Shown here piece by piece: positions 3,999-58,451 of a stretch of DNA of 64,000 nt. This DNA comes from Alphaproteobacteria bacterium. Lineage in GTDB: Bacteria; Pseudomonadota; Alphaproteobacteria; Caedimonadales; UBA1908. Location: positions 67,001-131,000 of the forward strand of contig JAJTHL010000003.1 in the NCBI GenBank assembly GCA_021298595.1, read 5' to 3'. A program made the translations under genes and the position numbers. Numbering within the stretch: the stretch's first letter is position 1; every line of letters begins with the position of its first letter. The notes below the pieces were generated by a model that made no database searches, was not told the DNA's origin, and saw nothing but the letters and a program-made list of their open reading frames with translations.

Positions 3999-4080
3999 GG
4001 AGGCTCACGCGGCGCCTTGTCTGGGCTTGTCTCTCCTGCTAGCTTAAGGGAATGTTGTGTTGAGCCCATGCCATAAAAAA

Positions 4081-5124
4081 ATGCCCCTTGACCCTAATGC
4101 CATTACCGTCACAGCCCCCCCTCATTCTCCTGAGGACATCGACCCATTCCTTTACCCCGCATCCCCTGCCCTTGAGGAGGGATACCTGACCGTTTCTCAG
4201 CGCCATAGTTTGTGGTACGCAACCTATGGAAATCCCAAGGGTATCCCGCTTGTGTTTCTGCACGGCGGCCCCGGGGCGGGGTGTCACGATTTTGTGGCAA
4301 AACTTTTTGATCCTGAGACTTACTACCTGATTCTTTTGGATCAACGAGGGGCGGGGCGTTCTCGTCCTTGGGGAGTACTCGAGGAAAACACAACGCAAAA
4401 TCTTATCTGTGATCTAGAAAAACTAAGAGCGCATCTTGCTCTTTCAAAATGGGCCCTGACAGGCGGCTCTTGGGGATCAACCCTCGCCCTTGCCTATGGG
4501 CAGGCGCATCCAGAGCGGTGTTTGGGATTTCTTTTGCGGGGTGTCTACTTGGGTGACCGCGCGGCCCTTGATCATTTTTGGTACGGCACCCGAACTCTTT
4601 TTCCCGAAGCCTGGGAAAAGCTTAGCTGCTTTATTCCCGAAAACGAACGCAGCGATCTTGTGCGTGCCTATCACAAGCGCACCAATGGCCAAAACTCAGC
4701 AGACCAAAAAGACGCTATCGCGGCCTTGATGAACTTTGATTTGACCTTGAGTTTTTTCCACATCACGCCTTTTGAGGTTGAAAAAATTCTGACAAAAGAA
4801 AAAAATATGGTGGACTTTGTTGCCCGCGCTTTTATGCATTACGCCGCCAATGATTTTTTTCTTTCAGAAGGACAGCTTTTGGAAAACATCGGGGTGATTT
4901 CACACCTTCCATGCTTTATCGTCCATAGCAGATATGACGCGCTGTGCCGCGTGGCGGGTGCTTACGATCTTTTCGCTCGTTGGCCAGGCGCTCATCTGAC
5001 CATTGTTTCCGAGGCCGGACACGCCAGCATGGAACCTGAAACCGTCAAAGCCATGATAAGCGCCGGCAATGACCTTAAAAACTGTCTCCTAGAGCGCGTG
5101 CCTCTATATAAAAAAGCGCTTTAG
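4081..5124 (+). CDS. pip: Prolyl aminopeptidase (proline iminopeptidase), alpha/beta hydrolase
   Basis: LHGGPGAG oxyanion motif, nucleophile elbow GGSWGSTLALAY, RGVYL and a C-terminal AGHA. An alternative GTG start lies at 4057. Confidence 0.9.
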   Translation: MPLDPNAITVTAPPHSPEDIDPFLYPASPALEEGYLTVSQRHSLWYATYGNPKGIPLVFLHGGPGAGCHDFVAKLFDPETYYLILLDQRGAGRSRPWGVLEENTTQNLICDLEKLRAHLALSKWALTGGSWGSTLALAYGQAHPERCLGFLLRGVYLGDRAALDHFWYGTRTLFPEAWEKLSCFIPENERSDLVRAYHKRTNGQNSADQKDAIAALMNFDLTLSFFHITPFEVEKILTKEKNMVDFVARAFMHYAANDFFLSEGQLLENIGVISHLPCFIVHSRYDALCRVAGAYDLFARWPGAHLTIVSEAGHASMEPETVKAMISAGNDLKNCLLERVPLYKKAL

Positions 5125-5783
5125 GCGCCGGGATAATGCACACCGTCCCGCCCAGTTATCAGGACTGCTGGCTCTAAAAGCTTACCTTCCTTATAATGCG
5201 CCACGCGGTACGCAGTGCCGTCGGCATAGTAATAAACGAGGCGCCCATCTTTTAGATCATTTTTAAAATCAATGGTTTTCATCAACTCACCCGTGGGGTA
5301 GAAATTACGGCACTCTCCCTCACGGCGGTCATTGACATAAGGCATGATCCGCGTAATTTTTCCCGTCTCATCAAAAGACACCATGTCCCCATGTTTGCGG
5401 TCTTCAACATAGTCTATCGTATTCACTAAATTTCCACCACTATCATAGAAAACGGCTTTGCCGTGCTTCTTGCCTTCGAGATAGGGCATCATGGCGCACA
5501 AATTGCCCCGTCTGTATACTTCCATACAGCCGTCAAGTTTTCCTTCCTTGTGGCTTGTAACCCGGGATACCTCTCCTTCTTTATCATACTTCAAGGAAAT
5601 CCCATGGGGCTTACCATTGGCAACAGAAAGTCTTGCCCGCACACGCCCTTGTTGATCGAACCGCTCTAACACACCGTCCACAAGACCACGCCTGTGCTCT
5701 TGGCGCGCCCGAAGGCGACCACTTGGATCGTAATGTTCTTTTGTGCCGTTCATTTGCACGGCTAGCGACTTTTTTTCAGCCAT
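5121..5783 (-). CDS. MORN-repeat-variant protein (YwqK-family, immunity/antitoxin-like)
   Basis: Seven to eight tandem units of about 23 aa of the type G(K/R)xHGxxxxYxxxGxlxxxxxY (e.g. GKPHGISLKYDKEGEV, GKKHGKAVFYDSGGNL, DRKHGDMVSFDETGKI, DLKDGRLVYYYADGT). Lies 18 nt downstream of the DUF4280 gene. Confidence 0.8.
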   Translation of the reverse strand: MAEKKSLAVQMNGTKEHYDPSGRLRARQEHRRGLVDGVLERFDQQGRVRARLSVANGKPHGISLKYDKEGEVSRVTSHKEGKLDGCMEVYRRGNLCAMMPYLEGKKHGKAVFYDSGGNLVNTIDYVEDRKHGDMVSFDETGKITRIMPYVNDRREGECRNFYPTGELMKTIDFKNDLKDGRLVYYYADGTAYRVAHYKEGKLLEPAVLITGRDGVHYPGA

Positions 5784-5801
5784 GAATGCCCCCTGTCCCT
5801 A

Positions 5802-6179
5802 TTAAACAAAAACCGTAAAATTCATGGGGTCGAGGATCATCACAAATCCCGGACCCACATCGTCTGCGCCTCCTGTGACCACTGCCAAGACCGCTGACAC
5901 AGTGAGGCACGGCGCAATGGAAATTTGTGGGAGCGAAGGTATGCCGTCAAAAAGGACTGTGGGATCACCTGCTATCCACATGAATGTTCCCGGTGCACAA
6001 ATCCCCAAGATGTCGCAAGCGGGAAAGCTAGGAATATTCGCCTCGGGAATGGCATCGATGATTGTGCCTGCAATACTACCCTCCACAAAGAGGGGAATAG
6101 GATCCGTGATCAGTTCTGTGGGCCCAGGACTAAGAGTGCACTGAATTTGTGCGCCCATCACTGTTTCAAGTCCTAGCAT
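5802..6179 (-). CDS. DUF4280 (PAAR-like) domain protein
   Basis: Matches the pattern GAxxxCxxxPGPxxL...D..PxxNIPxFxxC....C.P....W..G.PTV...G.P.L......C, as in DUF4280 PAAR-like proteins. Perfect SD AAGGAGG lies 5 nt upstream of the ATG. Confidence 0.75.
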   Translation of the reverse strand: MLGLETVMGAQIQCTLSPGPTELITDPIPLFVEGSIAGTIIDAIPEANIPSFPACDILGICAPGTFMWIAGDPTVLFDGIPSLPQISIAPCLTVSAVLAVVTGGADDVGPGFVMILDPMNFTVFV

Positions 6180-6234
6180 TTTGCCTCCTTTGCTGTTTTT
6201 TTACTTTTTTTGTCATCCAATCCTTGTGAATGAT

Positions 6235-7029
6235 CTAATGAATATATGATTTTAGAACCCCCATACGGAACGGCGCGCTGGAAACCGACATTTCTCCCGA
6301 GAAGGGGTAATCCAAATTAAAAGCAATGGATACGTTAAAGGCAATCACCATAATGACAAGGCTCACACAAACCACGTGAACGCCTTTATCTCGCTCAGAG
6401 AGAAGGGATAAAAGAAAAGTAATGATGAAGATGCCCAAGACTAAAAAAAAGCGAAGAGGCTCTGTTAAAACACTTTCAATGGCATCGATGCGTTCATGAC
6501 GTTTTTCAAGAAATAAATCTGCACTTTTCACAAGAGAGGCATAAAAGGCTTTCTCCCCATCTGTTTTGGGGGTCACGGTTAACAAAGATTTTAGCAGATC
6601 AACAGCCGCACTTTCTGCTTCTGGGGATGAATGACCCACCCTCATGAGAGGCCACTCTTGGCTCACTACAAGATTGACGTATTTCCCAATACGTTCATCA
6701 AGTTCGTTCTGTTGATGTGGCGCCAGTGCTGACTTGTGGTGAACGATCGACATTAAATGATTTGCTTCCGCTGAAACCAGGGACTCTGCATGATTAAAGC
6801 TCTGCCATAGCACAATGACAACAAACCCAAGAAAAAATCCGTAGTTTGCACTGGCTATCACAGCAATGGTCGGCAGATATGAGTTATTTTCCTTGTGAAT
6901 CCAGTGGGATAGTTTTCTTTTTACAAAGAAAAAAACTAAACTTGCGCATGACATAAAAAAGAGAACGCACACCAAAATGCAAGCCCACGCAGGCAAGACG
7001 TTCATTATGAAGCGCGTCATCTCCCCCAT
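6235..7029 (-). CDS. Membrane protein, DUF4239-like (bestrophin-like topology)
   Basis: One N-terminal TM helix plus a second TM, a soluble helical middle (EANHLMSIV...YVNLVVSQEWPLM) and two C-terminal TM helices. The family call is from memory of DUF4239 architecture. Confidence 0.6.
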   Translation of the reverse strand: MGEMTRFIMNVLPAWACILVCVLFFMSCASLVFFFVKRKLSHWIHKENNSYLPTIAVIASANYGFFLGFVVIVLWQSFNHAESLVSAEANHLMSIVHHKSALAPHQQNELDERIGKYVNLVVSQEWPLMRVGHSSPEAESAAVDLLKSLLTVTPKTDGEKAFYASLVKSADLFLEKRHERIDAIESVLTEPLRFFLVLGIFIITFLLSLLSERDKGVHVVCVSLVIMVIAFNVSIAFNLDYPFSGEMSVSSAPFRMGVLKSYIH

Positions 7030-7113
7030 ACTCCCCCCGTTTATCTTTATGTCGTCACTTTATCATACAAACATAGCGTTACATATTTTATGACACGGCG
7101 CTACTACAAAGCG

Positions 7114-7797
7114 TTACTGGGCTTCAAGTTCTGGGGCTGACTCTGGCGGTTCCTCTTCCACTCCCTCAAGGCCGCGGTGGAACGCGTCGAGTTGAGCTTT
7201 CTCTTCCATTGGCGAAGGGGCAGCATAAGTTTTGTCAGGCACGTCCTCAGGGGGAAGTGGCCCCGTATTAACGGCGCGTTTTGCAGCAGAAGAGGATGCA
7301 ATGTCAGCGAGTCCCGCTGTCCGTTTGGAGGACTCATCGGTGGAAAGAGAGCCAACGATCACTGTGCTCTCAAGACTTTCTTTGGAGGTAGGCCCTTCAC
7401 ACCCCACAAGCCAAATATCGTATACAGGATGTTCCATGGCGGAAATGGAGGGGGCAGAGGCAAACATCCATCCAGTAAAAATCGGTAGTTTTTCATCTCC
7501 CTTACTAGTTTCCGTGATTTCAAGAAAGGCAAGCGCCTCTGGAGGATCCTCTGGGAGCGAGGTGCGACACTGTCTTGCCGTTATTTGAAGTTTACCAAAT
7601 TTAGCTTCTTCACCGATGGCAAGCTCTAACGTCTGCACATGACCCGTGACCTTATCAAGACCCCGTAGAGTCAGTTTCTTGGCCAGCAGCGGTACTTTTT
7701 GTTGAGCGATACTGTGATTTAAAGAAGTAAATCCACTTTGAGGAAAGAACCCCAAAAGACTGGTCATGAGAACTTTAAGAGTGTTTTTCATGGGCAT
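7114..7797 (-). CDS. DUF2155 domain protein with a long Pro/Glu/Ser-rich C-terminal tail
   Basis: Signal peptide, then LRGLDKVTGHVQTLELAIGEEAKFGKLQITARQC...ALAFLEI, typical of DUF2155. Conserved alphaproteobacterial position after mlaD. Confidence 0.75.
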   Translation of the reverse strand: MPMKNTLKVLMTSLLGFFPQSGFTSLNHSIAQQKVPLLAKKLTLRGLDKVTGHVQTLELAIGEEAKFGKLQITARQCRTSLPEDPPEALAFLEITETSKGDEKLPIFTGWMFASAPSISAMEHPVYDIWLVGCEGPTSKESLESTVIVGSLSTDESSKRTAGLADIASSSAAKRAVNTGPLPPEDVPDKTYAAPSPMEEKAQLDAFHRGLEGVEEEPPESAPELEAQ

Positions 7798-8257
7798 CTT
7801 TTGCTTTATCTTGATCTTTTTTATTGCTAAAGATCAGCTGACCAATCATCGCCTCAAGGCTGACAGACGCTTGTGTATGGGCAATCACGTCACCTGACTT
7901 TAGGTTGGCGTCATCCCCCCCTGGCACAAGAGCAATATACTTACCCCCCAAAAGACCGTCGGTGACGATTTCAGCAGACGAATCTTTTGGAAGCTTGATG
8001 TCTTGGGTGACGCTTAACTTGATGACTGCAAGAAACGTGGTTGGATCTATGGACATACTTTTAATAGCGCCTACCTTCACCCCACTTAAGCGCACATCAT
8101 TCCCGACCTGTAAGCCGTCCACACGGTCAAAACGCGCCAAGAACTCTTGCCCGCCTTTATCATGATACCCGCTACTGTTATAGGCGAAAACAAGAAAAAA
8201 AGCGGCCACACCCAACACAACTGCGCCCATGATTGTTTCGATGGCATTCTGAGACAT
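7775..8257 (-). CDS. mlaD: Outer-membrane lipid asymmetry maintenance protein MlaD (MCE domain)
   Basis: N-terminal TM anchor (ETIMGAVVLGVAAFFLVFAY) plus an MCE domain (FDRVDGLQVGNDVRLSGVKVG). Lies between the NDUFA12-like and DUF2155 genes. Confidence 0.88.
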   Translation of the reverse strand: MSQNAIETIMGAVVLGVAAFFLVFAYNSSGYHDKGGQEFLARFDRVDGLQVGNDVRLSGVKVGAIKSMSIDPTTFLAVIKLSVTQDIKLPKDSSAEIVTDGLLGGKYIALVPGGDDANLKSGDVIAHTQASVSLEAMIGQLIFSNKKDQDKAKDAHEKHS

Positions 8258-8274
8258 GAAAAACTTAATCCTAA

Positions 8275-8634
8275 CTATGCATCACTGCCTTTGTTTGAAG
8301 ATGAAGGCACCCAAGCCGTATAAGACTTTTTAATCTTGCTGGACGGATTAAGCAAGCTTCCTTTTGGTTTGTGGGCGTGCGTCGTACCCGTCAAGTTCTG
8401 AAGATGTTTCTTTTGCCAACTATGCCTCGGTCGGTTAAGGGGGTTTTCGTAAGTAAAGTGGAGCCATCCATGCCATTCCGGAGGTACTTTTGAGGCATCT
8501 GGTTCTGTGGCAAAAGTTACCCAGCGTTTAGGAGGGCGATCGGGTTTCGAAAAGAGGAACTTTTCTTCGAAGTAACGGTTACCGTATGCATCTTGTCCCA
8601 CAAATCGCCCTTTTATCCAGGTGCGAATTTTCAT
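8275..8634 (-). CDS. NADH:ubiquinone oxidoreductase subunit NDUFA12-family protein
   Basis: GQDAYGNRYFEEK...RWVTFA...DASKVPPEWHGWLHFTYENP matches the NDUFA12/B17.2 family. The start could be 8643 or 8634. Confidence 0.88.
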   Translation of the reverse strand: MKIRTWIKGRFVGQDAYGNRYFEEKFLFSKPDRPPKRWVTFATEPDASKVPPEWHGWLHFTYENPLNRPRHSWQKKHLQNLTGTTHAHKPKGSLLNPSSKIKKSYTAWVPSSSNKGSDA

Positions 8635-8857
8635 AATAATCATAGACGTTCTACCGCAAGATCTTGTGCTAGCAGCAATTATGACAGCACGCGCCCGCGA
8701 CGTCCACGCTTACTTTCATTCGGTTGGCAGTTTACAACTTCTTTTTTCTTGTAAAGACACTTTTTGCTCCTTTTTGAAAACATGATTCTATGCTAGTAAA
8801 AATCCATCTCCCAGGTTTGCACGCGCCTTATCAAAAGCCAAAGGATACGATGATATT

Positions 8858-10340: not shown

Positions 10341-11429
10341 ATGTCTCTTCCCGACACGCCGCTTACAACGCCTTCGTGTGTGGCACATATTGATCTTGGG
10401 GCCGTGCGTCATAACTTTACCCTTTTGCAAAAGGCCCATCCCGCTCAAAAAATTGCCGCCGTCATTAAGGCAGACGCCTACGGTCTTGGGACCGCCCCCA
10501 TTGCCAGGTCTTTGGCGCTGGCGGGCTGTCAGCATTTTGTCGTGGCTTTTCCAGAAGAAGGGCTTTTTCTGCGCACGGTCCTTAAGGACGCTAAGATCTA
10601 TGTGCTGTCAGGTGCGTGGGAGGGGATGGAGCGCACCTTTGTGAACGAAAAGCTCATTCCTGTCCTCAACGATCTTGAAAGCGCCAAGCGCTGGCACAGC
10701 GCCGCGCCAGGCGCTCCTTGCGCCCTCCACGTTGATACCGGCATGGCGCGCACAGGGTTTGAAACCCATGACTTGCTTCAAGAAAAAACCTTTCTTGAGA
10801 CCTTGAATCTTCAGTTTATCATGAGCCACTATGCCAATAGTGACGATTCCCACCATCCTTCTAATAAGGCACAGCATGATCTTTTTGACGAGATCGCGCG
10901 TCATTTTCCAACGATTCCAACGTGCCTTGCAAACTCTTGCGCCCTGTCGCTTGATGACACGTATTGGGGGAATTTCGTGCGCCCAGGCTTGAAGCTCTAC
11001 GGTCTTTCTCCTGATACCGTCCAAAAGGACGGATATCTGCCTGCGGTGCGTGTCTCAACCAGGATCCTGCAAGTCAGAGAGATTACCCCAGGGCAAAATG
11101 TTGGCTACGGTAACACCTGGGCGGCCACTCGCCCCACACGTCTTGCAACCCTTGCCATGGGCTATGCTGACGGTCTTCTTCGCACCCTCAGTAATAAGGG
11201 ACATGTGTGGATTCAAGGACAAAAAGCCCCCCTTGTTGGCCGTGTGTCCATGGATTTTGCGACCATTGACGTCACAGATCTTGATCCCGCCATCACAGCA
11301 GTTGGCAGTTGGGTCGATCTCTTTTATGATGCTAAAAGCTTATATGAACAAGCGCATGCGGCCGACACAGCTCCCCACGAGTTTCTTGTGGGCCTCAGCA
11401 CACGGTGCACGCGCCTTTACACAGCATAG
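10341..11429 (+). CDS. alr: Alanine racemase
   Basis: PLP-lysine motif AVIKADAYGLG, and C-terminal GYADG...VGRVSMD. ATG 10341 lies just after the dnaB stop. The track ORF begins at 10323. Confidence 0.93.
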   Translation: MSLPDTPLTTPSCVAHIDLGAVRHNFTLLQKAHPAQKIAAVIKADAYGLGTAPIARSLALAGCQHFVVAFPEEGLFLRTVLKDAKIYVLSGAWEGMERTFVNEKLIPVLNDLESAKRWHSAAPGAPCALHVDTGMARTGFETHDLLQEKTFLETLNLQFIMSHYANSDDSHHPSNKAQHDLFDEIARHFPTIPTCLANSCALSLDDTYWGNFVRPGLKLYGLSPDTVQKDGYLPAVRVSTRILQVREITPGQNVGYGNTWAATRPTRLATLAMGYADGLLRTLSNKGHVWIQGQKAPLVGRVSMDFATIDVTDLDPAITAVGSWVDLFYDAKSLYEQAHAADTAPHEFLVGLSTRCTRLYTA

Positions 11430-31671: not shown

Positions 31672-31756
<85 letters not shown>

Positions 31757-31812
31757 ATGAGCGAATTAGAACCAACACGTCCTTGATACCCTTGATTGAG
31801 ACAAATTGCAAC

Positions 31813-32370
31813 ATGCCCTCTTCACCTCTTTTAAAAAAAATGCGAAAAATATCAGGGTCTCGTTTTGCTGTGGTCCTTTTACGAATGTCTCATCCAAGAT
31901 GGCAACTTATCCATGCTACGGCCCTATGCCTTGGCGGGATAGGATTTTTGTTGATGGGAAAAAGCAGAAGCGGAAAATCGGATTTTGCTCTCCGTCTCAT
32001 CATGGAAGAGGGTGCGCGCCTTGTGGGTGATGATGCTTGTGAGGTGGCATGGTGTTATGGTGGTGCCTTTGTGAGAGGCACGCCTTCTCTCTCTGGCATC
32101 CTTGAGGTTAGACCTTGGGGACCCACCCGTTTGGCACGGGAACAAATTATCCCCCGCGCAAAGCTAGGCTTTGTGTGTACGTTAGATGACAGCGCCCCTT
32201 TTGCACCAGATCTGCATCATAAGGGCATAGACGTTCCTGTCTATCCCGTTGCGCCCTTCGAAAGAGCTGCGAGCGCTAAACTCAGGCTGCTGGTGCAAGG
32301 GGTGCAAGGTTTGTCGTCACCGGAGCCTCTTTGTCTTGATTTTCCCAAGCGGGTAAAACCGCCCCTTTAA
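31813..32370 (+). CDS. hprK: HPr kinase/phosphorylase-like protein (short alphaproteobacterial form, catalytic domain only)
   Basis: IHATALCLGGIGFLLMGKSRSGKSDFALRLI..GARLVGDDACEV...LSGILEVRPWG matches the HprK C-terminal P-loop domain. The true start may be 31813, 31840 or 31885. The track start at 31690 lies inside tRNA-Leu. Confidence 0.75.
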   Translation: MPSSPLLKKMRKISGSRFAVVLLRMSHPRWQLIHATALCLGGIGFLLMGKSRSGKSDFALRLIMEEGARLVGDDACEVAWCYGGAFVRGTPSLSGILEVRPWGPTRLAREQIIPRAKLGFVCTLDDSAPFAPDLHHKGIDVPVYPVAPFERAASAKLRLLVQGVQGLSSPEPLCLDFPKRVKPPL

Positions 32371-34869: not shown

Positions 34870-37080
34870 TTATTTTGTGTGCAAATGCAAGACCCCATCC
34901 CAATCTTCAGGAGGAGGCTCGTTAATAAACGCCTTACAGCGCTCAATGTACAAGATGGCAACTGGATCTTTTGGTTTCTTCATAAGCACTTGCTCATAAA
35001 GGGCAATAGAGCCTTCCCAGTCTCTGGCAAGGTACTTTTCAAAGGCTTGCGCAGTCAGGTCACACCAAAGCTCTTGCTCGGGCGTTGCGGCGAACTCAGG
35101 ATCCTCTGTATACTGGGCAACAAGCTCAAAAATGCGGACCCCTTTTTCTTTCCCTTTTACAGCCACGATATCCAATGGACGCGTCAAAAAGCTACCTTGT
35201 AACGCGTCATGGACAAATTCGCTGATCAACATGTATGTATGATAGACCTTGTTAATGCCCTCAAGACGCGAAGCAAGATTCACCTGATCCCCAATGATCG
35301 TATAGTTCATCCGGTCCGCTGATCCCATATTGCCTACAATGACCTCGCCAAAATTTAGGCCAATACGTGTGGGAAGGGCCGGCAATCCTTTCAAACGCCA
35401 TTGTTGGTTGAGTGTTTCCAGCCTTTTTGAGCACTTAAGAGCCGCTTTGCAAGCGTTGATGGCGGCTCTGGGATCTTCTTCTGGTGCGCCCCAGAAAGCC
35501 ATGATGGAATCCCCAATGTACTTATCAATGGTTCCCTTATAGATCAAAACAATGTTACTGAGTTCACTGATGTAGGTTGAGAGGTGATTCATCAACGCAT
35601 CCGAGTCCATATTTTCTGAGATGCTGGTAAAATTCTCAATATCTGAGAACAAAATCGCCACATTACGCCGCTCGCCACCCAGGCTAACGGCGTTTCCCTT
35701 TTGAATGAGCGTACGGACAAGATTTTTAGGCACAAACTTACCAAAGGCAGAAAGTCCTTCCCGCATGGCATTCAAGGCATTTTCCATTTGCGTAATTTCA
35801 AAAAAGTGAGACTCAAGGGGTTTGGGGGGATCAAGATCAAGATCTCTGATACGGCGCATTTGACCAGCTAAAACTTCGATGGGGTATGAAATTTTTTGTG
35901 CGAATACCACAAGCAAAATAATCGAACCAAACAAAATAACTAGCGAGATGAGAATCACGTCTTTACTGATTTCACGAATGGGGCCCATAAAGTCATCATA
36001 GGGAGCAACTAGGCCAAGAATCCAATCTTGTGAAAAAAGATCACCAAAGTAAGAAAAATTTGCCACATATCTGATATCTTCCTTGGTATATTGAAAGTGT
36101 TGCTTTCCTTCTTTCAAGAATACGTTATAGGCTTCTAAAATATTGTTCTCGCCAAGCTCATTCACTTTAGCAAGGCGCATACCGGCCTCAGGTCCCACAA
36201 TACTTTGAACTTGGTGGGTCATAATATAGTTTTTACCCTGATCTGGAAAAGCGACAACCTCGCCTTTCTTGTTGATGATAAAGTTAATGCCCGAACGACT
36301 TGCCTTTTGACGACGCAGAAGAAGGGAAATGTTATCAATACCAATGTCGCAGGCCAGGGCGCCGACAAACTTTCCTTTGTGATCAAAAAGAGGAACCGTT
36401 GCCGTTACTACGAAGTCCGATGAAAACCAACTGGGATAAACGTCTGACCAATTGGGCTTAAGCTCCGTTTTAGTTTTCACGTACCAGTCTCTTTTTCGGT
36501 TGTCATATTGCTCCGATGGCTTGACGTTTGGTTTGTATTCGCGGGCGAGCTCTTTTCCCGTTTTATCAATATAGGACCTCGATTCCTTATACTGACCCCC
36601 TCTTCTATCAACAATATCAAGCACATATGCGCTTTCATGCGGAATAGGTTTATCTAAATCGTACAAGTATACGCGTTTGTCAGGAATATGACCTACGGAC
36701 ACCATATTGCCTTCCTCGTCGGACGCAAAAACAAGGGTTGTTTGCTCGAGCGCGTCAAGACATCCCCTCAAAAAGGCAATCACAGGGGCATTCTCAAGGA
36801 TGGGTGCGTCGGCCGCGCGCTCGACCGATGAGCCAAGGGTCATAATCTTCATGGCTGGGGTAAAATATGAGATGGTGTCGTCTACAATGGTTTTTTGTGT
36901 TTTACTAATAAGGTCTTGGGCGGTCAATTCGACAGCCTTTTGGATGTTAAGATGGGTATAAGTTGTGGTCAATACAATGGATGACACCAAAAGGCCCACA
37001 AAGATTCCAAGGATCCCAAATCGAATCCTGTGCTGTCCTTTAAAAACACCCAGAAAAGAAAGAACCCTTTCTTTTTGCAC
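34870..37080 (-). CDS. Membrane sensor adenylate/guanylate cyclase (class III) with periplasmic Cache-like domain, HAMP and C-terminal helical tail
   Basis: TM, about 330-aa extracytoplasmic domain, TM, HAMP-like linker, then the cyclase core (VAILFSDIENFTSISE...YKGTIDKYIGDSIMAFWGAP...RIGLNFGEVIVGNMGS..RMNYTIIGDQVNLASRLEG). Confidence 0.88.
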   Translation of the reverse strand: MQKERVLSFLGVFKGQHRIRFGILGIFVGLLVSSIVLTTTYTHLNIQKAVELTAQDLISKTQKTIVDDTISYFTPAMKIMTLGSSVERAADAPILENAPVIAFLRGCLDALEQTTLVFASDEEGNMVSVGHIPDKRVYLYDLDKPIPHESAYVLDIVDRRGGQYKESRSYIDKTGKELAREYKPNVKPSEQYDNRKRDWYVKTKTELKPNWSDVYPSWFSSDFVVTATVPLFDHKGKFVGALACDIGIDNISLLLRRQKASRSGINFIINKKGEVVAFPDQGKNYIMTHQVQSIVGPEAGMRLAKVNELGENNILEAYNVFLKEGKQHFQYTKEDIRYVANFSYFGDLFSQDWILGLVAPYDDFMGPIREISKDVILISLVILFGSIILLVVFAQKISYPIEVLAGQMRRIRDLDLDPPKPLESHFFEITQMENALNAMREGLSAFGKFVPKNLVRTLIQKGNAVSLGGERRNVAILFSDIENFTSISENMDSDALMNHLSTYISELSNIVLIYKGTIDKYIGDSIMAFWGAPEEDPRAAINACKAALKCSKRLETLNQQWRLKGLPALPTRIGLNFGEVIVGNMGSADRMNYTIIGDQVNLASRLEGINKVYHTYMLISEFVHDALQGSFLTRPLDIVAVKGKEKGVRIFELVAQYTEDPEFAATPEQELWCDLTAQAFEKYLARDWEGSIALYEQVLMKKPKDPVAILYIERCKAFINEPPPEDWDGVLHLHTK

Positions 37081-38203: not shown

Positions 38204-39274
38204 TTAACTCTCAAAAGCTTTCTTCACAAAAAGAATATGAAGATCTTCTTGAGGTTTAAAGTTGGTGAGATGCAAGGACAGAACTCCTTGGGCATCTTGG
38301 GTGTATGCTGCCCCTTGCGGCGCACAGAAGGTGGCGATCATGCCCGTTAATGGTTTCACTTTCAAAGTAAAGTCTTTGATTGGCCCTTTCCAATTAGCCC
38401 CCGTTTTCAGAACATAATCTACGACAGCAATACGCCTCACTTGCGGAACATTGGAGGAGGCATTGTTTTGAAATAGTCCCAGAATGGTTTTTTCAAATTC
38501 GGGACGAGGACAGAATTCTTTCCAAGTGAGTTTAGCCTCAGCAAGGGAGAGATCTTCAAGGGACTTGCCTTTCCCTTGAAGATAAGCCCAATAATAGCCT
38601 GTGGCAGGCTTGTACGTGTGTGTTACAAGGCTTTTCTTTTGCGGGGGAAAACGCTGTGTCCAGTAAAAAATCGTATGGTCTTGCCATCTCGGCATCCCTT
38701 TTTCATCGAGCAAACCTAGTTTTTTTACTTTCTTTTTAAGGGCCGGATTTCTATCAAGCCAACTCTCTTCTTGGATACCCAAAAGAAAGGCGCGTGAGAG
38801 GGGGATCCGGTTTTTAGCCAGAAGTTTTGTAATATCTTTGCCATCGGGAAGAAGGGCGACAACTTTGCTAAGATAACCGTAGCTTTCTCCGTCGACTGTC
38901 CGTTTAAAATTCAAAAAAGGACGCGCTTCCAAAACAGAAGCAAGGGAGGATGTTTCCTCTTCTGTATAGCGTTCCAGTTTTTTATACGCAAAGTACTGCT
39001 CGTCCCAGATTTCCGAGTAAGGCGTCATGGTGGGCAAAGGAAAGGCCACCTCGGCCGTGATCTCGTGGTTTGCATGATTAAAGAATTCATAGGAAACGCT
39101 GACCTCTTCGGGCGAAATGGTTAGTTCCTCCCTTTGCATTTCAACGTCGTCGCTGACTTTATACACGATCTCGCCCGACTTCACGGACGCCAGGGTGTCA
39201 TTGGCCTTTGCCGAAAGGGCGCCCAGAAGACACAAAACGCTGCCCCAGATCACTTTAGATGTACGCATCCCCAC
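38204..39274 (-). CDS. Secreted hypothetical protein, possibly DUF4424 family
   Basis: Clear signal peptide (VLCLLGALSAKA) on a 356-aa ORF. The N-terminal region (EELTISPEEVSVSYEFFNHANHEITAEVAFPLP) resembles what I recall of DUF4424. Coding status is strong, the family call tentative. Confidence 0.6.
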   Translation of the reverse strand: MGMRTSKVIWGSVLCLLGALSAKANDTLASVKSGEIVYKVSDDVEMQREELTISPEEVSVSYEFFNHANHEITAEVAFPLPTMTPYSEIWDEQYFAYKKLERYTEEETSSLASVLEARPFLNFKRTVDGESYGYLSKVVALLPDGKDITKLLAKNRIPLSRAFLLGIQEESWLDRNPALKKKVKKLGLLDEKGMPRWQDHTIFYWTQRFPPQKKSLVTHTYKPATGYYWAYLQGKGKSLEDLSLAEAKLTWKEFCPRPEFEKTILGLFQNNASSNVPQVRRIAVVDYVLKTGANWKGPIKDFTLKVKPLTGMIATFCAPQGAAYTQDAQGVLSLHLTNFKPQEDLHILFVKKAFES

Positions 39275-56382: not shown

Positions 56383-58398
56383 TTAGGACTGCTTAGAAAA
56401 ATCTAGGTTCTTGTAATGCCCTAAGAAACTCAGGATCGTTGCGGTAAATTTCCCGGGAGCGCTTTCCTCAAGCTGGTAGACAAAACGGTGCTCATGGTCT
56501 ACACGTCTTGAATACGTGTTCTTGGCTCCCACAAGCGTCTTTAGGCGGCCCGATTTGTAACGTTGCTGCAAGGGATCTGCCTCAATTTCTGAGATATAGA
56601 GATCAATTTTATCTTTGATGTAAGCCGGCATTTTTTTAAGGCTGTCGCGCTGCTTTGTCACGTGCCTGGTGGCAAACCCCCATGTCACTGTTGGGGCCGC
56701 ACTGACAGAGGACGATGACGACCCAGTGGAGGACGATGAAGCAGACGCAAGGGGCGCCGCCGGTAAAGCCGGCTTTGTCTTGCCGTGCCCGAACAGATAC
56801 CGCACATTCATACTTTCTGGCAGCGTAAAGATAGGCCCAGGATTTTCAGCAAAGGCTAAGAAGTGAGCTTTGTTGGCTTGTTTTAAGCGCGCCGCTTGGA
56901 ACAAAGTATGTCTTCTTGACCAGTCCCTGTGAAGAGCCTCTATTTCACGCAATTCTTGGTGCGCACGCGTCACAGGATTAACACTTTGGGGCGCAGAAGA
57001 CAAAGACGTGTGAGAAGATGAGGAGGACGCGGCACCAGATGATGAAGCCGCAGGTGGCGCAGGAACTGATGGCGCAGAAGATGAGGAGGACTCGGCGCCA
57101 GATGATGAAGCCGCAGCTGGCGCAGGAACTGATGGTGCAGAAGACGAAGACGTGTGAGAAGATGAGGAGGACGCGGCGCCAGATGATGAAGCCGTGCGAG
57201 ACGCAGGAACTGACGGCGCAGAGATTCCATGAGGCGCACGCTTAATCTCTGCTTCGAGGGCAACACAAGCACCATAATGTGTGAGCATTTTTTCGCGCAG
57301 GGTGGTAAGCGCCTCGTCTTCTGTTTTCGTGACTTTGTCTAAAAGAGCTTTTGCTTGTGCCCTAACGCTTGATACCACACTAACCTGCATCGCGTGAACT
57401 GTTGAGTCCCTTAGGCCTGCCCTTTGTTTGGTTGTTGAAGGCTTTGCCCCTCGCCGCGCACGCCCCTTGGTGGTTTTTTTGGGTGGCAGTAACTCAGACA
57501 TAATGCTTAGTCTTTCTAAGTCAAACTCGTCCAAATCAGAAAGTGGTATTTTTTTATAGACTGCGAGGGCGCTGTCAAGCTTTCTTTCAGTAATGAAGGA
57601 TAGCGCAGCCAAACGGCAAGCGCTCGGCGTAACTTGCTCTGCCAGCGAGAAATACGTGTCCCAAGCAGTACAGGCGTTCTTATGCTCTCCCAGTTCACTA
57701 TAAATGCTTGCAGCGTTATGGTGAACGGCGGCTGGTAAAGCAAGGGTTCCATTGAACCGCGCATAAAGGTTTTTCACCTCATCGTGCTTCTTAGACATGA
57801 TATAGCTGCGGATAGCGCCAGCAACTAAAGTCCCGTGAGACTTTATCCCTGGGGTTTCAAAATAGTAACGCCAAAAATGACAAGAATCCTCGTAACGCCC
57901 CACTTGATAAAACACAAGTGCGATAGCTGAAGCATGTTCTATATTAATAGATGTCTGGGTCGCGGACGCAATTTCAATAAAACGGTCAAAGTGCTTGGCG
58001 GCAGTTTCAAAATCCTTTGCCCCCACACAAGAAAACGCTGCCTCTTTGAGATAAACCATCATTGGATCTGGCACTTTTTTAAAATACTTTGTCCATATTT
58101 TAGCCGCCATTGCGTAGTCTTCTGCCGAATCAAGGGCTCTTGCATAGGAGATATAGTAATGGGGATCAGGATTGTAAGCAGTCTCAAAGTACTGGCCCCA
58201 AAAGTGAGCAGCCATCTTGAAATCTCTCCATTCTTCAGCGTCACGGGCGTATCCAATGTTGAGATCTTCCCTCGTTGCAGAATAGCTTCTATCTGAGTCT
58301 CTGGATTCGTCCCATGGGAACGACGCCTGCACAACGGGCACGAGACTTGTTCCCAATGACAAAAGAACTGGAAAAGAAAACAGAGAAAGAGACTTCAT
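56383..58398 (-). CDS. Secreted multidomain protein (paralog 1): signal peptide, six TPR-like helical repeats, Ser-rich tandem repeats, conserved middle region, C-terminal YoeB/Txe-like toxin domain
   Basis: MKSLSLFSFPVLLSLGTSLVPVVQA signal. Recurring AxxxW/FxxYF units. The C-terminus DKIDLYISEIEADPL...KNTYSRRVDHEHRFVYQLEE...ILSFLGHY parallels E. coli YoeB KKINELIKDTRRTPF...GFWSRRITEEHRLVYAV...ACRYHY. The track ORF extends to 58416. Confidence 0.85.
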   Translation of the reverse strand: MKSLSLFSFPVLLSLGTSLVPVVQASFPWDESRDSDRSYSATREDLNIGYARDAEEWRDFKMAAHFWGQYFETAYNPDPHYYISYARALDSAEDYAMAAKIWTKYFKKVPDPMMVYLKEAAFSCVGAKDFETAAKHFDRFIEIASATQTSINIEHASAIALVFYQVGRYEDSCHFWRYYFETPGIKSHGTLVAGAIRSYIMSKKHDEVKNLYARFNGTLALPAAVHHNAASIYSELGEHKNACTAWDTYFSLAEQVTPSACRLAALSFITERKLDSALAVYKKIPLSDLDEFDLERLSIMSELLPPKKTTKGRARRGAKPSTTKQRAGLRDSTVHAMQVSVVSSVRAQAKALLDKVTKTEDEALTTLREKMLTHYGACVALEAEIKRAPHGISAPSVPASRTASSSGAASSSSSHTSSSSAPSVPAPAAASSSGAESSSSSAPSVPAPPAASSSGAASSSSSHTSLSSAPQSVNPVTRAHQELREIEALHRDWSRRHTLFQAARLKQANKAHFLAFAENPGPIFTLPESMNVRYLFGHGKTKPALPAAPLASASSSSTGSSSSSVSAAPTVTWGFATRHVTKQRDSLKKMPAYIKDKIDLYISEIEADPLQQRYKSGRLKTLVGAKNTYSRRVDHEHRFVYQLEESAPGKFTATILSFLGHYKNLDFSKQS
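56991..57215 (-). repeat. In-frame tandem repeat of 81, 63 and 81 nt encoding Ser-rich linker units inside paralog 1
   Basis: Plus-strand copies at 56991-57071, 57072-57134 and 57135-57215 share GCGCAGAAGA...TGAGGAGGAC.CGGCGCCAGATGATGAAGCCG...GCGCAGGAACTGA. The middle copy lacks an 18-nt block. They encode (S)APSVPAP.AASSSGA.SSSSS(HTS.SS). Confidence 0.9.
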
Positions 58399-58451
58399 AT
58401 TTAAACTCACGAACAATGAAAAGCAATGAAATATGTCAAAAAATTAAAAAA

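Follow-up and report, generated by a model that had tools for sequence, protein, structure and literature searches.

A PAAR-like DUF4280 gene and its YwqK/MORN_2 partner, a candidate type VI spike-tip module among housekeeping genes

What is a PAAR-like spike-tip gene doing in a housekeeping block that holds no other part of a secretion apparatus? The question is raised by a 64,000-nucleotide stretch of an alphaproteobacterial genome (assembly GCA_021298595.1, contig JAJTHL010000003.1, positions 67,001 to 131,000), which we call the window and in which a gene for a DUF4280 protein is followed directly by a gene for a protein of YwqK-type MORN_2 repeats. On balance, and with slightly better than even confidence, we read the pair as an intact spike-tip module, passed on by vertical inheritance, that belongs to a type VI secretion system (T6SS) whose other genes would lie elsewhere in the genome, the partner being more likely a chaperone or adaptor than an immunity protein.

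The DUF4280-MORN_2 gene pair

The first-pass annotation, made from the sequence and its open reading frames (ORFs), had described a 125-amino-acid (aa) DUF4280 ORF preceded by a perfect Shine-Dalgarno sequence and followed after 18 nucleotides (nt) by a 220-aa MORN-repeat protein. All of this held on re-examination, and profile searches, the check that it had suggested, placed both proteins in their families. The features of the pair are as follows.

5802-6179, minus strand: DUF4280 (PAAR-like) gene, 125 aa, from the ORF list, with a PF14107 match above cut-off
5784-5801, minus strand: intergenic spacer of exactly 18 nt between the two genes, reading TAA-TAG-GGACAGGGGGCATTC-ATG
5121-5783, minus strand: MORN_2/YwqK-type gene, 220 aa, from the ORF list, with a PF07661 match above cut-off
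6184-6190, minus strand: Shine-Dalgarno sequence AAGGAGG, 4 nt 5′ of the DUF4280 ATG, read from the sequence

The DUF4280 protein matched PF14107 with 35.9 bits (gathering cut-off 26.3, E = 1.2e-8), residues 7-100 aligning with positions 2-104 of the 109-position model. A word-indexed search of 5.8 billion proteins, run with the protein as query and then with a profile, found only 18 proteins of its subfamily, 17 of them at E <= 1e-33 and the next at 6e-5. Judged by sequence, this alphaproteobacterial subfamily is rare and divergent: the window protein scores 36 bits on the Pfam model, against 121-125 bits for canonical proteins of T6SS clusters. Cysteines C14, C55, C61 and C91 are nevertheless invariant in 18 of 18 members and align with those of canonical DUF4280 proteins embedded in T6SS clusters of Paraburkholderia, Cupriavidus and Azospirillum. 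Four such cysteines constitute the defining metal site (Zn or Fe) of PAAR-like DUF4280 proteins, and each of them is needed for the function of IglG (PMC5014421, PMC5349215). Their invariance predicts that the window protein coordinates a metal as well.

Members of the subfamily lack an Ala-rich segment of about 19 aa that canonical DUF4280 proteins carry between the second and third cysteines, and they have a variable insert of 17-22 aa before a conserved last strand, PxNFTVFV; two members of 109 aa differ by the missing insert only. What the first-pass annotation had taken for a C-terminal extension of about 25 aa is this insert together with the conserved final strand of the domain, and not an effector tail. 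The DUF4280 core bears no N- or C-terminal toxin or extension domain, and hence has no PAAR-toxin fusion architecture. Sequence and profile searches of the PDB returned no solved homologue of the DUF4280 protein, PADLOC gave no match for it, for the MORN protein or for the Bestrophin-like protein encoded upstream, and PHROGs gave no meaningful match for either member of the pair.

Its partner matched PF07661 (MORN_2) with 65.9 bits (cut-off 29.6, E = 8.5e-19) and, by direct reading, consists of eight tandem repeats of 23-24 residues without a signal peptide; family profile searches recognised no catalytic domain in its 220 aa. The best matches in a PDB sequence search were eukaryotic MORN-type domains (SET7/9, RSPH1, PIP5K), all of them weak, and an exhaustive phmmer search was dominated by repeat arrays of 800-1100 aa, with one orthologue-like representative only. 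Orthologues are found 3′ of the DUF4280 gene in the related loci L009, L011, L013, L017, L019 and L020.

The two genes are closely coupled. Since the 18-nt spacer, in which a second stop codon lies in frame and a run of GGGGG forms a G-rich ribosome-binding stretch, is too short for a promoter, the pair would form one transcription unit. The spacing is 15-19 nt in L009, L011 and L013, and for L020 the ORF list shows an overlap of 8 nt between the two. In an alignment with L009, L017 and L020, AAGGAGG was the sole conserved element of the intergenic region upstream of the DUF4280 gene.

The pair is under strong purifying selection, as are its housekeeping neighbours, and it is not decaying. Nei-Gojobori dN/dS values for the window against L009 were 0.046 for the DUF4280 gene and 0.050 for the MORN gene, compared with 0.013-0.106 for six housekeeping neighbours, and the range reported for the pair is about 0.03-0.05. 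Between these sister species the MORN protein is 95% identical and the DUF4280 tip 89%. The exact DUF4280 protein occurs in 44 blocks of the assembly collection, drawn from freshwater metagenomes and the metagenome-assembled genome (MAG) GCA_046316735.1, with identical synteny in every place shown, and both genes are intact in every copy found. The same arrangement is present in a sister species at about 83-85% DNA identity, represented by L009 and L017 (the MAG 'Alphaproteobacteria bacterium MCMED-G24', JACESU01); a scan of metagenome contigs returned two loci only. The locus is also present in the assembly GCA_046345055.1. An earlier suggestion that the pair is a remnant of a toxin-immunity cassette finds no support in this purifying selection, in the intactness of all copies or in relatives, where no toxin gene adjoins it.

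Genomic contexts of the subfamily and the linked vgrG

We compared the surroundings of the subfamily members, which fall into five types.

Context A: NDUFA12-MlaD-DUF2155-Bestrophin-like-DUF4280-MORN, in the window clade and in a clade at ~50-54% identity (L019, L020 'Ca. Puniceispirillum sp.', L022)
Context B: vgrG (888 aa)-X (257/304 aa, no Pfam match)-DUF4280-MORN, in L011/L012/L018 (UBA1908, Tara Oceans) and L013
Context C: solitary DUF4280 gene before yebC-ruvCAB(-tolQR), in L028/L029 (L028 9859-10248)
Context D: petA-petB/C1 (fused; cytochrome bc1), then 24 nt, DUF4280 and a 273-aa protein, in L030-L032 (L030 6686-7075)
Context E: short contigs without context

Context B is the one that ties the pair to a spike. 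Its DUF4280 and MORN proteins are orthologues of those of the window at 58-63% identity, and the VgrG proteins linked to them in L011 and L013 have the T6SS-type architecture Phage_GPD + Phage_base_V + Gp5_trimer_C + DUF2345. Nothing points to an extracellular contractile injection system (eCIS) of the Afp/PVC-like kind, for which no sheath, tube or baseplate genes were found in the window, and the linked VgrG of the relatives is of the T6SS type. In L013 the cassette of context B also abuts NDUFA12-MlaD-DUF2155, in divergent orientation.

In the clade of context B, and only there, vgrG is joined to the DUF4280-MORN pair; in the other clades the same vgrG lineage seems to lie elsewhere in the genome. 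A search with the L013 VgrG found its closest named relatives in the VgrGs of Caedimonas, Caedimonadaceae, Paracaedibacter and Odyssella. A cluster 67% identical to it, P0010, includes MBA4750074.1, which is encoded on a 422-kb contig and named 'T6SS tip protein VgrG [Alphaproteobacteria bacterium]'. MCMED-G24 has MBA4749837.1 as its DUF4280 protein, on a 976-kb contig, and because the two accessions are 237 apart and NCBI numbers sequentially, both proteins appear to come from the same assembly. A further VgrG, P0303, is 96.4% identical to MBA4750074.1, has NCBI, JGI, ENA and Logan as sources, and carries MFN/MFO protein accession numbers, as do proteins of the sibling GCA_0463... MAGs. From this identity, the multiple sources and the recent accessions, P0303 is probably the window species' own VgrG copy. 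Another VgrG, P0024, was tried as the window-genome copy and rejected, since it comes from other MAGs; through it we found vgrG and ywqK side by side, as described in the next section.

For the clade at about 50% identity, members of the VgrG cluster P0011 are labelled '[Proteobacteria bacterium]' and '[Candidatus Puniceispirillum sp.]', matching the labels of L019 and L020. The P0011-cluster locus L023 reads vgrG-X homologue-DUF4424-574 aa and has no DUF4280 gene. VgrG identities between the three clades (75%, 67% and 67%) parallel those of housekeeping proteins, and on this ground vgrG appears to have been inherited vertically in all three.

The X family (L011 9207-9980, L013 9090-10004, L023 12639-13292) has no Pfam or PHROG match. 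X always lies 3′ of this VgrG lineage, with or without DUF4280-MORN, and evolves fast, at 46% identity where VgrG has 83% within the sister clade and at 29-33% between clades. Both an adaptor and an effector are conceivable.

The arrangement found in the window is old. The three main clades are roughly equidistant (MlaD identities 72-76% and 69%), so the ancestral gene order cannot be polarised; the order Bestrophin-like-DUF4280-MORN, kept down to ~50% identity, nevertheless shows that the pair is not a recent insertion. The first-pass annotation had raised an insertion between pip and the gene that it called DUF4239, which is the PF14023 Bestrophin-like gene, and this idea finds no support for the same reason: one side is conserved and it is the pip side that varies. 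In L017 (~11058-11222) only the last 55 residues of the window pip (4057-5124) find a match, and at the DNA level the likeness to the window ends at window position 4893, inside pip, which places a rearrangement breakpoint directly after the MORN gene in MCMED-G24.

Two further features bear on how the pair is transcribed with its neighbours.

6235-7029, minus strand: Bestrophin-like membrane protein gene (PF14023, 144 bits), 55 nt upstream of the DUF4280 gene
5115-5129, minus strand: terminator-like hairpin GGCGC-CTAAA-GCGCT followed by TTTTTT, from a consensus scan only, the count of such sites in the region being at chance level

The Bestrophin-like gene also lies 5′ of the DUF4280 gene in L009 and L017, is present in two copies in L019, L020 and L022, and does not occur in three of the other contexts. 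A consensus scan found no terminator-like site between it and the DUF4280 gene, and it probably shares a transcript with the pair, which does not imply a functional link. The hairpin overlaps both the stop codon of the MORN gene and the end of pip, which runs convergently. Promoter and terminator consensus scans of the region performed no better than chance.

These settings could be taken to mean that a divergent DUF4280 protein has been recruited, independently of any T6SS, to an envelope or respiratory role together with co-transcribed genes (the Bestrophin-like channel, Mla/DUF2155, NDUFA12 and, in other members, cytochrome bc1). Bestrophin-like-DUF4280-MORN does stand beside NDUFA12-MlaD-DUF2155 in two clades at ~50% identity, other members lie 24 nt after petA-petB/C1 or alone before yebC-ruvCAB, the Ala-rich loop of canonical DUF4280 has been lost and a C-terminal insert gained, and no promoter- or terminator-like site separates the DUF4280 gene from the genes upstream. 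However, the housekeeping neighbours vary among members, with no single conserved partner, and the same subfamily stands behind vgrG in one clade, while clades in which the pair is detached appear to have kept an orthologous vgrG. All residues that define PAAR-like proteins are kept, and the MORN partner is vgrG-linked in other lineages. Beyond synteny nothing speaks directly for such a recruitment, which would be in line with the new use of the PAAR-like fold that the first-pass annotation had raised, and we consider it quite improbable. A stronger form, in which the loop-remodelled subfamily would no longer be a spike tip at all but a small four-cysteine metalloprotein of the envelope or respiratory chain, with a MORN_2 partner in some lineages, strikes us as very improbable. 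Its basis is the repeated position of subfamily genes at the 3′ ends of housekeeping operons (NDUFA12-MlaD-DUF2155-Bestrophin, cytochrome bc1) and directly before yebC-ruvCAB; if true, it would give the PAAR fold its first known use outside injection.

The role of the MORN_2 partner

If the DUF4280 protein is a spike tip, what does its partner do? Loci outside the subfamily are informative here. In other alphaproteobacterial MAGs (L024-L027) a 216-aa MORN orthologue, 37% identical over its full length (E = 6e-40), lies directly 3′ of vgrG. Both Paraburkholderia phymatum pBPHY01 and Cupriavidus sp. P-10 pMTS1 carry clpV-vgrG-MORN_2 (238-240 aa)-DUF4280 (128 aa, 121-125 bits), and Azospirillum brasilense Sp7 p1 has vgrG-MORN_2 (212 aa), then a convergent DUF4280 gene. 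Matches to the window MORN protein occur in only 25 of the 72,556 PLSDB replicons; of the 19 replicons that carry a canonical DUF4280 gene, 11 have such a match within 1.7 kb of it, nine of them within ~210 nt. The order vgrG-YwqK-PAAR-like (Bphy_5985-5987) has been described for T6SS-b of P. phymatum (PMC8356804), and Paracaedibacter-like endosymbionts have a fixed [ywqK-vgrG] unit in a dispersed T6SS of at least 4 loci (PMC8163844, bioRxiv 10.1101/719211). A 2026 review of T6SS accessory factors makes no mention of YwqK/MORN_2 among them.

Taken with the vgrG-X-DUF4280-MORN order of context B and the probable vgrG of the sister species, this recurrent core-cluster module upholds one half of an earlier proposal, that the genes encode a spike tip and an adaptor or immunity protein serving an apparatus encoded elsewhere: a tip with its partner is well in keeping with these loci, and immunity is the weaker half.

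Around vgrG-ywqK in L024/L025 (GCA_046317875.1, GCA_046337505.1) we also noted genes for an LRR_5 protein of 678 aa, for one of 681 aa that matches Sel1 faintly and for one of 368 aa with a weak NEL (E3 ligase) match (E = 0.03), besides a lone phage terminase gene, surroundings that look like the effector repertoire of a eukaryote-associated bacterium.

The YwqK family takes its name from YwqK of Bacillus subtilis, the antitoxin of the LXG toxin YwqJ, and this origin counts in favour of an immunity function. The MORN_2/YwqK protein would then be an antitoxin, either an orphan directed against a T6SS toxin of relatives or cognate to a distant effector, and the DUF4280 gene would be kept through co-transcription. 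Such proteins are indeed labelled 'YwqK family antitoxin' by the PGAP annotation pipeline, vgrG-linked YwqK has been called an immunity protein (bioRxiv 10.1101/719211, PMC8163844), and the fast-evolving X between vgrG and DUF4280 in the sister clade could be an effector. But the label in those two papers is an annotation transfer and not an experiment. No toxin-domain gene adjoins the MORN gene in the window, where its neighbours are the DUF4280 gene and the convergent pip, or in any related locus read, and in core clusters YwqK stands directly between vgrG and DUF4280 with no effector. X follows vgrG without DUF4280 and MORN in L023, and MORN follows it without X in L024-L027, so the two are not a fixed pair. 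Finally, a dN/dS of 0.05 and 95% identity between sister species are unlike fast-diversifying immunity genes. We judge an immunity function improbable.

Alternatively, the MORN_2 protein may be cargo that is secreted on the DUF4280 tip, as proposed for IglF on IglG, and acts inside the target cell, where it might, for instance, bind membranes or lipids as eukaryotic MORN repeats do. The tight coupling with the tip gene across the 18-nt spacer, the IglG-IglF precedent (PMC5349215), the weak best PDB matches to eukaryotic MORN-type proteins and the kinship of the VgrG lineage, which is nearest that of protist endosymbionts (Caedimonas, Paracaedibacter, Odyssella) in which eukaryote-directed effectors are expected, all speak for it. 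High conservation and the presence in core clusters of free-living soil bacteria, however, point to a structural accessory more readily than to an effector, and no catalytic domain is recognisable in this beta-repeat protein of 220 aa. A cargo role is unlikely, in our estimate, if less so than immunity.

We thus return to a spike-tip module with a chaperone or adaptor. The DUF4280 protein would fold as a small metal-stabilised cone held by its four cysteines and would cap the blunt end of the VgrG trimer, sharpening the spike, a function established for the family and presumed here. The co-translated 220-aa MORN_2/YwqK protein would be its cognate cytoplasmic partner, with both the tip and VgrG as presumed binding partners. 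DUF4280 proteins are notoriously insoluble (PMC5014421), and the PAAR-like DUF4150 needs a dedicated chaperone, DUF2169 (PMC11883445). By analogy, the partner is most likely a chaperone or adaptor that would keep the tip, itself poorly soluble, or its complex with VgrG loadable, in the way that DUF2169 serves DUF4150/PIPY; that it is a passenger leaving with the tip is less likely. We favour a chaperone or adaptor because YwqK lies between vgrG and the tip gene in core clusters without an effector, because it is more conserved than the tip and no toxin ever adjoins it, and because DUF4280 proteins are hard to keep soluble and DUF4150, a comparable PAAR-like tip, depends on DUF2169.

Several observations weigh against a spike-tip module served from elsewhere in the genome. 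Neither the window nor the 4-6 kb beyond it contains a T6SS structural gene, a nearby vgrG is missing from four of the subfamily's five contexts, and contexts C and D are also without a MORN gene within the 1-10 kb of sequence on each side, so that the partner is not obligatory in cis. The assignments of P0303 and MBA4750074.1 were made from accession proximity and identity levels and not from a read genome, and the genomes concerned are MAGs, in which binning errors are possible. The similarity of the MORN protein to YwqK of Burkholderiaceae amounts to only 27% identity, with E-values that the repeats inflate. Structure prediction added little: an AlphaFold2 model of the DUF4280 protein from the 18-sequence alignment had a mean predicted local distance difference test (pLDDT) score of 51 and a predicted template modelling score (pTM) of 0.44, and a model of the MORN protein alone had a pLDDT of 41, both too poor for a fold search.

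With these reservations, the window genome is predicted to have a working, dispersed T6SS. For the window this means that two genes otherwise read as 'hypothetical' and 'antitoxin' become a likely T6SS spike-tip unit, and that a dispersed T6SS is predicted for a widespread freshwater alphaproteobacterium. More generally, a YwqK/MORN_2 protein of ~215-240 aa that databases label an antitoxin travels with VgrG and DUF4280 in Alpha- and Betaproteobacteria, core clusters included, and the comparative evidence makes it more likely a conserved component of the spike module than an antitoxin. Should it prove to be a chaperone or adaptor of the tip, it would join DUF2169-PIPY as the second such example, and many annotations would have to be corrected.

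The rest of the window and comparison with known systems

The genes around the pair form the housekeeping setting that the first-pass annotation had recognised. Downstream lies the convergent pip, encoding prolyl aminopeptidase (TIGR01249, 300 bits; window 4057-5124), and upstream, after the same-strand Bestrophin-like gene, come DUF2155, MlaD and NDUFA12 and, further out, dnaB and alr, as identified with Pfam. A compositional anomaly was considered and rejected, the GC content of the pair (0.46-0.53) falling within that of its surroundings (0.40-0.57). Two RNA runs yielded contigs that match the window at 100% identity over parts of the MORN (5118-5531), Bestrophin-like and mlaD genes, which is weak evidence for expression of the locus, DNA carry-over being possible. 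Three 'fungus metagenome' runs (X1, X9, X19), besides many freshwater and lake metagenomes, contain 81-100% of the sampled words of window positions 4900-8700, and the organism may live in association with aquatic fungi or with the hosts of such fungi.

We surveyed nearly the whole 64 kb through Pfam matches of called genes on public contigs that carry window proteins, the gaps being filled separately. No VgrG, Hcp, sheath, baseplate or eCIS gene was found among them, and tblastn of the window with the VgrG and X proteins of relatives gave no match. The earlier statement that the window holds neither structural nor toxin-domain genes thus stands for the former; for the latter it misses two proteins with a YoeB_toxin domain.

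56383-58416, minus strand: YoeB-like paralogue 1, 677 aa, C-terminal YoeB_toxin match of 28.1 bits (cut-off 27)
58574-60460, minus strand: YoeB-like paralogue 2, 628 aa, C-terminal YoeB_toxin match of 19.7 bits (cut-off 27)

These tandem paralogues are 46% identical, lie ~50 kb from the pair, and each have weak TPR matches and a hydrophobic, signal-peptide-like N-terminus. Proteins of this size are an unusual context for a YoeB/RelE-type domain, and no YefM-like gene was recognised beside them. A related C-terminus (33% identity over 80 aa; YoeB_toxin 20 bits) occurs in an 837-aa protein of L019 (5580-8093, minus strand), encoded between the DUF2155 and Bestrophin-like genes ~2 kb upstream of DUF4280-MORN and missing in the close relative L020. 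This protein could be a candidate effector, or its position could be coincidental.

Other genes of the window have counterparts near loci of the subfamily or its vgrG. A DUF4424 gene (182 bits; 38204-39274, minus strand) lies between gmk and a methyltransferase gene, and the DUF4424 protein encoded directly 3′ of vgrG-X in L023 (13295-14443; signal peptide) is 36% identical to its product. A 736-aa protein with dCache_1 and guanylate/adenylate cyclase domains (34870-37080, minus strand) has a 45% identical counterpart in L028 (5098-7272), near the solitary DUF4280 gene there. In context D, the 273-aa protein that follows DUF4280 has an N-terminus that is hydrophobic and resembles a signal peptide. 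We further noted a 226-aa protein (31690-32370, plus strand) with the C-terminal domain of HPr kinase only (36 bits, cut-off 33), which adjoins tRNA-Leu (31672-31756).

How does the pair compare with systems already known? The nearest likeness is to the vgrG-YwqK-DUF4280 unit of P. phymatum T6SS-b, Cupriavidus pMTS1 and Azospirillum Sp7, where MORN_2 (212-240 aa) and DUF4280 (128-129 aa) likewise stand side by side near vgrG, and where the four cysteines and ~15 other DUF4280 positions are identical. The window pair differs in having no adjoining vgrG, in placing the tip gene first, in its housekeeping block and in an identity of only 27-28%; its DUF4280 protein lacks the ~19-aa Ala-rich segment between Cys2 and Cys3 and has the insert of 17-22 aa.

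Francisella IglG, the founding PAAR-like DUF4280 protein, shares the domain with its four cysteines and is a proposed VgrG cap with a partner of its own, IglF (PMC5014421, PMC5349215). Unlike IglG, whose N-terminal amphipathic helix binds IglF and whose gene lies inside the Francisella pathogenicity island (FPI) cluster, the window protein has no N-terminal extension, scores 14 bits on the NCBIfam IglG model (cut-off 200) and has a MORN_2 partner unrelated to IglF. With the [ywqK-vgrG] unit of Paracaedibacteraceae, Caedimonadaceae and Bodocaedibacteraceae the locus has in common a YwqK-family gene tied to a spike gene, and among named matches the relatives' VgrG is closest to these taxa; the papers on that unit report no PAAR-like gene, whereas YwqK of the window travels with the tip and not with vgrG. 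The DUF2169-DUF4150 (PIPY)-VgrG system also links a non-canonical PAAR-like tip to a dedicated accessory protein (PMC11883445), but the families are unrelated, and the accessory requirement is experimental there and deduced from gene linkage here.

Lastly, orphan PAAR genes, of which PAAR_H is the DUF4280 type, are single-domain tips away from vgrG just as in the window, and the share of PAAR genes with a vgrG no further than 20 genes away is only 62% (PMC8651086). The window pair stands apart from these in that its detached position is old and syntenic across clades, with a fixed partner, and is no fragment of a mobile vgrG island. The locus is a divergent example of a type already familiar, in which a YwqK companion accompanies an orphan gene for a PAAR-like tip, and it is an ordinary if neat one.

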